A DNA stretch of 39,935 nucleotides from assembly GCA_964608145.1 (NCBI GenBank), contig CAZSMD010000002.1, positions 1-39,935 on the forward strand, given 5' to 3'. Positions 22,475-22,731 of this stretch are shown in pieces. How positions within the stretch are numbered: position 1 is the first letter of the stretch; every line of letters begins with the position of its first letter. Under the pieces are notes generated by a model, which had not been told where the DNA came from, did not search any database, and saw only the letters and a list, made by a program, of their open reading frames with translations. The stretch is from an uncultured Candidatus Saccharibacteria bacterium (GTDB lineage: Bacteria; Patescibacteriota; Minisyncoccia; Phycocordibacterales; EsbW-18). A program made the position numbers and the translations under genes.

Positions 22475-22558
22475 GCGTCGGTGGCGGAGTGGTCAATCGC
22501 AACAGACTGTAAATCTGTCGCCCTTTGGGCTACGGAGGTTCGAATCCTCCCCGGCGCA
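22475..22558 (+). tRNA. tRNA-Tyr (anticodon GTA), long variable arm
   Basis: GCGTCGG TG GCGGAGTGGTCAATCGC A ACAGA CTGTAAA TCTGT CGCCCTTTGGGCTAC GGAGG TTCGAAT CCTCC CCGGCGC A. CCA is not encoded. Confidence 0.9.
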
Positions 22559-22570
22559 CAAAACAAAGGA

Positions 22571-22604
22571 GCCGGACGCGTTAGCGTTCGGCGACTTTTG
22601 TTTT
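22571..22604 (+). terminator. rho-independent terminator just downstream of tRNA-Tyr
   Basis: GCCGGACGC-GTTA-GCGTTCGGC (9 bp, one G-T pair), followed by GACTTTTGTTTT. Confidence 0.55.
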
Positions 22605-22710
22605 GGAGCATGCCGAGAGGATTCGAACGCCGGAACAGAATGTTCAGCGGAACATTCTGTGAGGCGGTGCCCAGACAGACTTTTGCGACGGCAAAAGTAT
22701 AGTCGAGGGA

Positions 22711-22731
22711 GAATCCTCCCCGGCGCACAAA
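22711..22731 (+). repeat. distal direct copy of the tRNA-Tyr 3' end (21 nt)
   Basis: GAATCCTCCCCGGCGCACAAA is identical at 22542-22562 (tRNA-Tyr T-loop through the discriminator plus CAAA) and at 22711-22731. Confidence 0.9.

Follow-up and report, generated by a model that had tools for sequence, protein, structure and literature searches.

Why should the 3′ end of a tRNA gene be repeated, letter for letter, a short distance downstream of the gene that it completes? The question arises at tRNA-Tyr in a 39,935-nt stretch of DNA from an uncultured Candidatus Saccharibacteria bacterium (GenBank assembly GCA_964608145.1, contig CAZSMD010000002.1, hereafter the window), where two copies of the tRNA 3′ end enclose a structured, 148-bp insert. 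This insert is one member of a structured family that is linked to tRNA 3′ ends: the insertion point is fixed, the arms agree with the local tRNA, the fold covaries in the tRNA sense and turnover between related genomes is rapid. No description of the family appears to exist for this phylum; literature searches on tRNA-linked repeats of Patescibacteria, on miniature integrative elements and on tRNA-like RNAs gave none that matches it. The interpretation that we place first, with belief about evenly divided for and against it, is that the insert and the distal copy together form a tRNA-trailer element resembling the RtT repeats of Escherichia coli, and that it belongs to a structured non-coding family of Campbellbacteria-like Patescibacteria whose copies come and go at the DNA level.

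The tRNA-Tyr(GTA) gene occupies 22475–22558 on the forward strand (ARAGORN; Rfam tRNA model, 61 bits) and does not encode its CCA. The 21-nt sequence GAATCCTCCCCGGCGCACAAA occurs exactly twice in the window, at 22542–22562 and 22711–22731, at a spacing of 169 bp. No further site was found in the whole window with up to three mismatches allowed, and two matches were reached in none of 100 shuffles. Read from the sequence, the proximal copy starts at T-loop G57, takes in the 3′ strands of the T-stem and acceptor stem and the discriminator A22558, and ends with CAAA, 4 nt beyond the discriminator. The initial annotation had described both the exact duplication and these limits, and had noted that the insert holds no credible open reading frame (ORF); we agree on each point, as all ORFs that overlap the insert run through the tRNA gene. 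A 170-amino-acid ORF at 22222–22734 on the reverse strand is spurious: L33 makes up only its last ~55–59 codons (22222–22400), and the remainder lies antisense across tRNA-Tyr and the element.

The insert folds at −60 kcal/mol (z = −7.4 against shuffles; z = −8.3 was also obtained), and its parts can be followed in order along the forward strand. A leader (22563–22604) carries intrinsic terminator 1, which was found by a terminator scan as a stem at 22571–22592 with a T tract and is lengthened by flanking A and T tracts; in alignment, this leader is orthologous to that of the tRNA-Tyr element in one relative, L219 (related loci are given as L numbers). Comparison with homologues and the minimum free energy (MFE) fold mark the next segment, GGAGCATGCCGA (22605–22616), as a degenerate remnant of an 'a' arm, antisense to the acceptor 3′ strand, and of a hairpin, H1 (AGCA...TGC), both of which are complete in relatives L194, L084, L200 and L092. 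The antisense arm 'b', GAGGATTCGAA (22617–22627), is the reverse complement of the T-loop and of the 3′ strand of the T-stem, as seen from the inverted repeat, the folds and covariation in the closing helix P1. Its partner can be the distal copy, which gives the 8-bp P1, or the T arm of the tRNA itself, which gives a 12-bp helix: GAGGATTCGAAC (22617–22628) is a perfect 12-nt reverse complement of GTTCGAATCCTC within tRNA-Tyr (22538–22549), and only 8 nt of it pair with the distal copy. The complementarity of GAGGATTC to the distal copy, reported at the outset, is thus real, but it sits at 22617–22624 rather than 22616–22623, and the match with the tRNA's own arm is the longer one.

Two arms follow. 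The P2/P3 arm (22628–22666) consists of P2, CGCC (22628–22631) against GGCG (22663–22666), the conserved internal-loop nucleotides GGA and GA, and P3, a perfect 11-bp hairpin at 22635–22660; it appears in the MFE fold and is backed by covariation in helices 2–4. The P4 arm (22670–22709) has outer pairs CCC/GGG and GAC/GTC, an 8-bp hairpin at 22679–22698 and the conserved loop GC-GACG-GC; it is likewise present in the MFE fold, with double changes in all 16 pairs of helix 5. The distal copy (22711–22731) contributes the 3′ strand of P1 and continues into a tail with the same sequence as the tRNA 3′ end. Two covariance models match the element at 22615–22728, with 119 and 107 bits. Intrinsic terminator 2 (22728–22772, forward strand; terminator scan) lies between the element and the convergent clpB gene; both hairpins and both terminators of the initial annotation are where it had put them. 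Terminator 2 is probably the native tRNA-Tyr terminator, because relatives with an empty site (L005 and L210) show the tRNA, then a terminator, then clpB; a search for such sites, in which the tRNA runs directly into the terminator, had been suggested in the initial annotation.

Several RNA classes were considered for the insert and dropped. An Rfam check, suggested at the start, found nothing in the inserts at either gathering or permissive thresholds. A tmRNA or a Y-RNA-like molecule gave no ARAGORN or significant Rfam match, the only hit being YrlA with 15 bits and E = 4.9, overlapping tRNA-Trp; the parts of tmRNA and Y RNAs are also arranged differently from those of the elements. The junctions misfit the hammerhead core, and no twister-like motif of a small self-cleaving ribozyme was seen, by eye only. 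A minus-strand tRNA pseudogene was considered for the segment GGATTCGAAC, which has neither a T-stem partner nor an acceptor 5′ strand.

A family of folded elements at tRNA 3′ ends

Two more elements lie in the window, at tRNA-Trp and tRNA-Leu, where the initial annotation had seen the same architecture. The tRNA-Trp element (type A2; 21953–22102, reverse strand) came from the repeat search, with a 20-nt repeat at 21953–21972 (the distal copy) and 22102–22121, and from a covariance-model match at 21954–22048 (53 bits); its insert combines a leader hairpin, which is conserved, with arms b, P2/P3 and P4, and ends 18 nt ahead of the start codon of a DUF192 gene. The tRNA-Leu(taa) element (type B; 29662–29801, forward strand) has a 21-nt repeat at 29662–29682 and 29781–29801 and adopts the type B consensus fold, which also shows covariation. 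The terminator scan found no terminator between tRNA-Leu or tRNA-Trp and its element in the window; a terminator stands downstream of the distal copies at both Tyr and Leu (29806–29825 for the latter). There are no 3′-end copies at tRNA-Gly and tRNA-Cys of the window, and a scan of the window with the type-A covariance model, at full sensitivity and without filter, returned only the Tyr (107 bits) and Trp (53 bits) elements.

Further copies, which the initial annotation had recommended looking for, proved numerous. A covariance model built from 3 copies gave 15 strong matches, and a second model built from those 15 gave 25 (E < 1e-4) in ~250 kb of related DNA. All 25 lie on the tRNA strand and 24 of them directly 3′ of a tRNA (Tyr, Trp, Leu-tag, Leu-taa, Lys, Cys or Gly). 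The one exception is in L088, where a Ham1-family gene and then a decayed tRNA-Tyr 3′ copy come before the element. In that locus (L088:1140–2065), this gene, of the non-canonical NTP pyrophosphatase kind, is flanked by decayed copies of the tRNA-Tyr 3′ end; two tandem type-B elements precede it and a type-A element comes after it, and it may be a cargo-carrying unit of the array. We also retrieved 120 metagenome loci with a tRNA-Tyr 3′ end, 83 of them Patescibacteria-type tRNA-Tyr genes; an insert is present in ~16 of the 70 Patescibacteria-type loci with enough downstream sequence, and in the unoccupied loci the terminator comes directly after the tRNA. Across tRNAs, sampled regions have 3 of 5 to 4 of 6 tRNA genes occupied, and roughly half of the tRNA genes sampled in these reduced genomes carry an element.

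The modules are non-coding and ~85–170 nt in size. From 5′ to 3′, the proximal copy is followed by an optional terminator hairpin, by arm 'a', whose sequence (for example GTGCGCCGG) is exactly the reverse complement of the 3′ strand of the acceptor stem, and by hairpin H1; next come arm 'b' (GGAGGATTCGAA), which is reverse-complementary to the T-loop and the 3′ strand of the T-stem, the two arms P2/P3 and P4 and, last, the distal copy. Because the a/a′ and b/b′ pairings are nested, an acceptor/T-like coaxial stack closes the element. Each module starts at T-loop position 56/57 of the tRNA and ends in a duplicate of the remaining tRNA, which leaves the gene intact. Type A, to which the Tyr and Trp elements of the window belong, has the junction motifs ..CGCC-GGAG..CGAG-GCGG-GGTCG..GTGAC|C, with a GGAG/CGAG junction and loops GCGACGGC or CAGCAG; type B, represented in the window by the Leu element, has ..GAAGACC..GGTGTACTG-CTCCTGTAAGGAG|CGA, and the architecture is common to both. 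In every case arm b and the distal copy fit the tRNA beside them, although one element body recurs at different tRNAs: subtype A1 is found at Tyr in the window and in L194, at Trp in L092 and at Leu-taa in L218, and an element body was found at seven tRNA identities with the arms matched to each.

On the tRNA-sense strand the element folds as a three-way junction that P1 closes, with the P2/P3 and P4 arms and with conserved junction and loop nucleotides. P1 pairs the internal antisense arm (T-loop/T-stem) with the duplicated T-stem strand and leaves the acceptor strand and discriminator as a tail at the 3′ end; this helix covaries with tRNA identity. In a covariance-model-fitted alignment of 25 sequences, 89.7% of cells were paired, as against 34–46% when partners were slid, and double changes occurred in 34 of 39 pairs; none of 500 shuffles equalled the observed values. 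The 15-sequence set gave the same picture (both sets together: 89.7–92.9% paired against 32–47% slid, double changes in 32–34 of 39 pairs). In the raw sequences, the elements of the window and L194 have identical junctions and wholly different P3/P4 stem sequences of the same shape. Non-Watson–Crick cells comprise 16 G-U and 5 A-C, and this excess of G-U over A-C indicates that the tRNA-sense strand is the folded one, either as RNA or as single-stranded DNA.

Covariation of this kind rules out a neutral scar, which the initial annotation had held in reserve. That the repeat might reflect chance similarity, an assembly artefact or a neutral local duplication is exceedingly improbable to us, and the homologues already refute it. 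An artefact could be suspected since a Logan contig from a 99.2% identical relative ends in the tRNA-Tyr 3′ end, where graph ambiguity is possible. That contig (L001) is an independent assembly in which the Trp repeat unit is unchanged, with zero substitutions in the Trp element; it breaks off within tRNA-Tyr, and so the Tyr unit is confirmed solely through homologues in other metagenomes. Against chance or an artefact stand the shuffles and the same architecture in dozens of independent assemblies from different projects. A 21-nt repeat is shorter than the k-mers usually employed in assembly and should not collapse.

The distal copies themselves bear on two other explanations. They are 19–27 nt long, with a fixed left end and a variable right end, and the identity can reach into the host-specific trailer (7 nt in L004-Trp, about 8–9 nt in L210-Trp). 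About 60% are perfect or nearly so; ~40% lack the acceptor part and keep the T-stem strand of P1. One explanation takes the distal copy as an alternative 3′ half, or the insert as a T-loop intron, such that tRNA nucleotides 1–55 join the distal copy and a ~169-nt segment is removed or tolerated. The start of the distal copy exactly in the T-loop and its perfection in ~60% of cases speak for this, as do the tRNA-Leu(tag) distal copies of L218 and L219, which track changes of the acceptor stem. We consider it highly unlikely all the same: the proximal copy already completes the tRNA and a terminator usually comes next, many distal copies have no acceptor strand though the rest of the element is conserved, and no bulge–helix–bulge-like pairing between the boundaries is evident by eye. 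Nor is any bacterial tRNA splicing endonuclease known. A bulge–helix–bulge intron had been tried as a candidate in its own right and was set aside, as the tRNA is completed by the proximal copy and the two boundary sequences are not complementary.

The other explanation, which the initial annotation had offered first, is that the units are remnants of large integrated elements (prophages or genomic islands) after internal deletion. Direct repeats of a tRNA 3′ end are the normal footprint of such elements (PMC9897764), and the L088 array does hold a gene between decayed tRNA-Tyr 3′ copies. Well-kept distal copies, however, lie 80–177 nt downstream in 13 of 13 cases; none was found beyond 177 nt in a search to 5 kb, nor were cargo-bearing versions found. 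The inserts are moreover homologous across loci and genomes, share a covarying fold and contain no gene fragments, so that decay is, if anything, a still slimmer prospect than the alternative 3′ half.

Two further loci show related features as minor observations. Behind two tRNA-Thr genes in L022 (700–1300) there are isolated fragments resembling a T arm plus acceptor, for example GGGTTCGAATCCCTCCCCCGGCTGAAAAAG, that are foreign to the adjacent tRNA. In L006 (3347–3560), a Campbellbacteria metagenome-assembled genome (MAG), tRNA-Gln and a terminator are followed by GCTAGCCAGACTAGGACTCGAA, an imperfect reverse complement of the whole 3′ end of the tRNA, which suggests that the antisense-arm feature may reach AT-rich relatives below detection by the models.

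Gain, loss and possible movers

We found syntenic relatives of the tRNA-Tyr site (rpmG–clpB) through homologues of ClpB and took sister pairs from a ClpB identity tree. The window carries subtype A1. Among the relatives, ordered by the identity of ClpB to that of the window, L218/L210 (89%) is empty, L214 (88%) has subtype A2 with the entire tRNA-Tyr-plus-element unit inverted, L219/L217 (85%) has a third body, again inverted, behind the leader orthologous to that of the window, L004 (79%) has subtype A2 and L005 (78%) is empty. Sister pairs therefore differ in occupancy at tRNA-Tyr: L218 is empty and L214 occupied, L004 occupied and L005 empty. At tRNA-Leu(taa), type B in the window is replaced by A1 in L218 and by nothing in L219, and tRNA-Gly(ccc), empty in the window, is occupied in L219. 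Tandem arrays of mixed subtypes occur in L181 and L088. One element lineage, recognizable by the core variant CCTGCCCGG and a matching antisense arm, is present in two distant hosts, L117 and L181, and the P4 region is nearly identical between L004-Tyr and L214-Tyr, where ClpB is only 77% identical.

Together, the differences in occupancy, the subtype swaps, the arrays and the CCTGCCCGG lineage point to gain, precise loss and replacement at the DNA level. Precise loss could plausibly proceed by recombination between the two direct repeats. Gain would need a factor in trans; no enzyme is encoded in the element, and hence any mover must act in trans. For the Tyr locus, the expected junction sequences are ...GGAGGTTCGAATCCTCCCCGGCGCACAAACACAAAAAAGAC for the empty site and ...TATAGTCGAGGGAGAATCCTCCCCGGCGCACAAAACAAAGGAGCC for a circle.

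Local rearrangement also appears to go along with the elements, as in the inverted tRNA-Tyr unit. The inverted units (L214:5777–6060 and L219:12775–13060) lie between clpB and rpmG in a gene order that is otherwise identical (clpB, rpmG, tRNA-Trp, DUF192); by the ClpB tree the two inversions look independent, and their flanking spacers cannot be aligned. The tRNA-Leu(tag) orthologues of L218 (4518–4602) and L219 (5646–5730) are near-identical except for the acceptor stem, GGGCGGG/CCCGCCC versus GCTGGGG/CCCCAGC, and each distal copy carries its own genome's version, which implies either concerted evolution of both copies or re-insertion after the change.

Conservation is strong for at least one orthologous copy. 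The Trp insert of the window is 93% identical to that of L218 (120 of 129 positions), with one difference in the 55-nt leader, and one of the nine differences is a compensatory change from C-G to T-A in P4; the four-fold degenerate sites of clpB are 42.8% identical between the same two genomes. From this comparison follows either selection on integrated copies, or exchange or renewal far later than the divergence of the hosts. The Tyr inserts of the window and L219 are ~64% identical, and the distal copies are perfect in both (21 and 19 nt).

Could the module act as DNA alone? It would then be a miniature integrative element whose 21-nt copies are attL and attR cores, served by a recombinase in trans, with any RNA incidental; the P2–P4 module and antisense arm would be a recombinase-binding structure or a folded single-stranded attP, comparable to the attP(+) of CTX phage and the attC of integrons. 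The identity block, which runs from T-loop 56/57 to just beyond the tRNA end, is the classic layout of a T-loop att site, one of the sublocation classes of tRNA att sites (Williams 2002, via PMC9897764), and its extension into the host-specific trailer in L004-Trp and L210-Trp fits too. Empty and occupied sister genomes, subtype replacement, mixed arrays, the two distant hosts of the CCTGCCCGG lineage and the near-identical P4 of L004-Tyr and L214-Tyr are all as expected of a mobile unit, and a circular form would base-pair every segment of the element. Other facts sit badly with it. No recombinase turned up among the ORFs of the window or beside any element copy for which the sequence was inspected. 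Seven tRNA identities with matched arms are not accounted for by an integrase of fixed specificity, the 93% conservation at Trp amid saturated neutral sites would require very recent exchange or selection in place, and a double-stranded circle of 120–170 bp is mechanically unfavourable. Viral contigs gave no home for the family either: a scan for the 18-nt core met only an unrelated phage tRNA array, and the type-A motif CGGAG..GAGBCGGGGTCG..GTGACC had 4 matches, apparently by chance, in coding sequence with no tRNA nearby. We rate a purely DNA-level role as possible, though on the unlikely side.

The absence of recombinases from the window, which the initial annotation had noted for an integrase, rests on Pfam scans of 29 of the 34 larger non-overlapping ORFs, which showed no integrase, transposase or other recombinase; the five ORFs outside the scans are ribonucleotide reductase, DUF192 and ClpB, identified otherwise, and two short or overlapping ORFs. 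Set against attL and attR sites made by integrases in tRNA genes, the elements share the direct repeat from the T-loop to just beyond the 3′ end, the restored tRNA, empty and occupied relatives and tandem occupancy. They differ in that the 85–170-bp insert holds neither an integrase nor any other gene and is itself a conserved, covarying fold found at many tRNA identities; the ORFs of the insert and the Pfam scans showed no tyrosine or serine integrase gene, either inside or adjacent. As a description, the proposal of a miniature family mobilized in trans is largely borne out by the family, the missing ORF, the lack of a recombinase in the window, presence and absence, subtype swaps and arrays; the tyrosine-integrase chemistry first attached to it is not demonstrated and fits poorly with the same body at different tRNAs.

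Other mobile systems offer partial parallels. Like integron attC and the XerCD-dependent attP(+) of CTX phage, the elements keep their structure while the sequence varies, share a size range of ~60–140 nt, depend on an enzyme not encoded in the unit and contain an inverted target copy by which a single strand of DNA, were it used here, could rebuild a duplex recombination site; unlike them, they target a tRNA gene rather than attI or dif and lack an integron integrase or attI context. Pfam scans of the window showed no intI, and neither a GTTRRRY boundary motif nor R/L boxes are visible in the alignment, no dedicated attC model having been run. REPIN/REP sequences, mobilized by a single-copy RAYT transposase, are also short, non-coding, hairpin-forming, multi-copy and trans-dependent, and persist with compensatory changes, but they are inverted REP doublets scattered between genes, without target duplication and not tied to tRNA 3′ ends. 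Terminal inverted repeats with a short, fixed target-site duplication (2–10 bp) are not what is seen here, where the inverted repeat is internal and the duplication is 19–27 nt.

In a further reading, the elements are a self-addressed system that targets tRNA genes: the antisense and sense arms of the folded strand would specify the tRNA 3′ end, a host or helper enzyme would bind the P2–P4 scaffold and insert at T-loop 56/57, and retargeting would need changes in the arms only. Such logic recalls the guides of IS110 bridge RNAs and TnpB omega-RNAs, here in a 100–170-nt element without a gene of its own. We regard it as improbable; were it true, it would explain the RtT repeats of E. coli too.

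The RtT precedent and a possible RNA in the trailer

The closest known counterpart by design is RtT, which the initial annotation had not recognized. The E. coli K-12 tyrT–tyrV locus contains four RtT units (Rfam RF00391; 133–138 bits with the Rfam model). Each finishes with a 19-nt copy of tRNA-Tyr that starts in the T-loop and reaches the 3′ end of the tRNA, just as the elements described here end in a copy of the tRNA 3′ end. The RtT closing helix, GGGGAAGGAU/AUCCUUCCCC, sets an antisense arm against the copied T-stem strand on the same principle as P1, and the motif GGAUGAGAA (GAGAA) follows the closing segment in RtT as it does in Patescibacteria L138, L218-Trp and L219-Tyr. Both kinds of unit are found on the tRNA strand, immediately downstream of the gene and inside its operon, and both occur in tandem arrays, with a period of 178 bp in RtT and 169 bp here. 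Two features of RtT, a same-strand position directly 3′ of a tRNA (the three window elements and 24 of the 25 matches) and a copied tRNA tail paired with an antisense arm, are present. The internal arms and junction motifs differ, and the Patescibacteria elements, unlike RtT, often have a terminator of their own, show an extra hairpin and a second antisense arm, directed at the acceptor strand, where the copy is full, and occur at seven or more tRNA identities.

Like the elements described here, RtT varies in copy number and is missing from some strains: RtT units were found in 4,726 of 5,426 complete E. coli genomes, at 1–9 places each. In SK1144, the only unit-free strain that was examined, the tyrT–tyrV spacer contains no RtT and other genes follow tyrV. 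There (L208, NZ_AP018784.2 2698163–2699473), tyrT and tyrV are 33 nt apart, desaturase-family genes come directly after tyrV and the locus is rearranged. The annotated E. coli rttR RNA has its 3′ end exactly at the copied CCA. The 178-bp tyrT repeats and RtT RNA were reportedly described by Egan and Landy in 1978 and by Bosl and Kersten in 1991. RtT members beside Asn and Lys tRNAs are expressed in Pasteurellaceae (PMC4986893), and for a function of RtT the literature still offers no more than a possible modulation of the stringent response (PMC3318445).

The Patescibacteria module most likely belongs to the 3′ trailer of the tRNA and would be transcribed from its promoter, since there is no terminator ahead of the Leu and Trp elements and terminators stand after the distal copies; transcription of the Tyr module would require read-through of terminator 1. 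The tRNA-identical 3′ end may let the tRNA 3′-maturation machinery define and stabilize the terminus of the RNA, as for rtT RNA, and the conserved junctions and loops are probably a protein-binding platform.

Several observations weigh against an RtT-like RNA. At tRNA-Tyr, a good intrinsic terminator precedes the structured part, and RNA output there may be low. The acceptor part of the distal copy has decayed in L005-Trp, L138, L160, L161, L214, L218-Lys and L218-Leu-taa; with such decay in ~40% of copies, the tRNA-like tail is not always maintained. Occupancy of any given tRNA is patchy, which speaks against an essential function for the host. The Rfam RtT model has no match in window positions 21900–22800 at E ≤ 10 and none in nine element-bearing loci at E ≤ 1, so by gathering score (threshold 45 bits) the elements are not RtT members. 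Conversely, the type-A models rank the four RtT units at the top of the E. coli locus, but with only 11–15 bits, and the second model, from 15 sequences, did no better (11 bits against 15), and we claim no homology. Alignments fitted by covariance models lean to structure and inflate the pairing figures given above. Finally, a recombination site made of folded single-stranded DNA would likewise be consistent with a strand-specific fold and an antisense arm.

On architecture, the elements are best filed as the same kind of thing as RtT, with homology unproven. For the functional tRNA-linked RNA that the initial annotation had floated, strand-specific covariation, a conserved orthologous copy and the RtT precedent speak in favour, and the alternative 3′ strand once assigned to it finds no support, given the ~40% of distal copies without an acceptor part. 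A role as RNA and a role as DNA alone are not mutually exclusive, and the data do not separate them.

If the RtT-like reading holds, the tyrT repeats and RtT RNA of E. coli, known since 1978 and 1991 without a mechanism, would be one case of a general class that extends to a very distant phylum. The copies in Patescibacteria are numerous and diverse, which makes it possible to define the fold, the conserved junctions and the insertion point, as the near-identical E. coli copies never allowed. The elements are also a major feature of tRNA loci in these reduced genomes, and for annotation they yield tRNA 3′ fragments and double terminators.

Surroundings of the elements in the window

The genomes nearest to the window are Campbellbacteria-like Patescibacteria MAGs. 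The neighbours of the elements are housekeeping genes: rpmG (L33) stands between tRNA-Trp and tRNA-Tyr, and clpB, the DUF192 gene and ribonucleotide reductase are nearby. Exact-protein look-ups of L33 (with two start choices) and ClpB returned no record. A bacterial class A RNase P RNA gene lies at 16970–17331 on the forward strand (116.5 bits); in L004 and L005, RNase P RNA adjoins the DUF192 gene, with scores of 79–83 bits that fall under the Rfam gathering score. A 29-nt direct repeat (86% identical) at 12659–12687 and 12737–12765 comprises the first 8 nt of tRNA-Gly(ccc) and 21 nt upstream of it; it duplicates the 5′ end of the tRNA with its promoter-proximal region and is of a different kind from the 3′-end copies.

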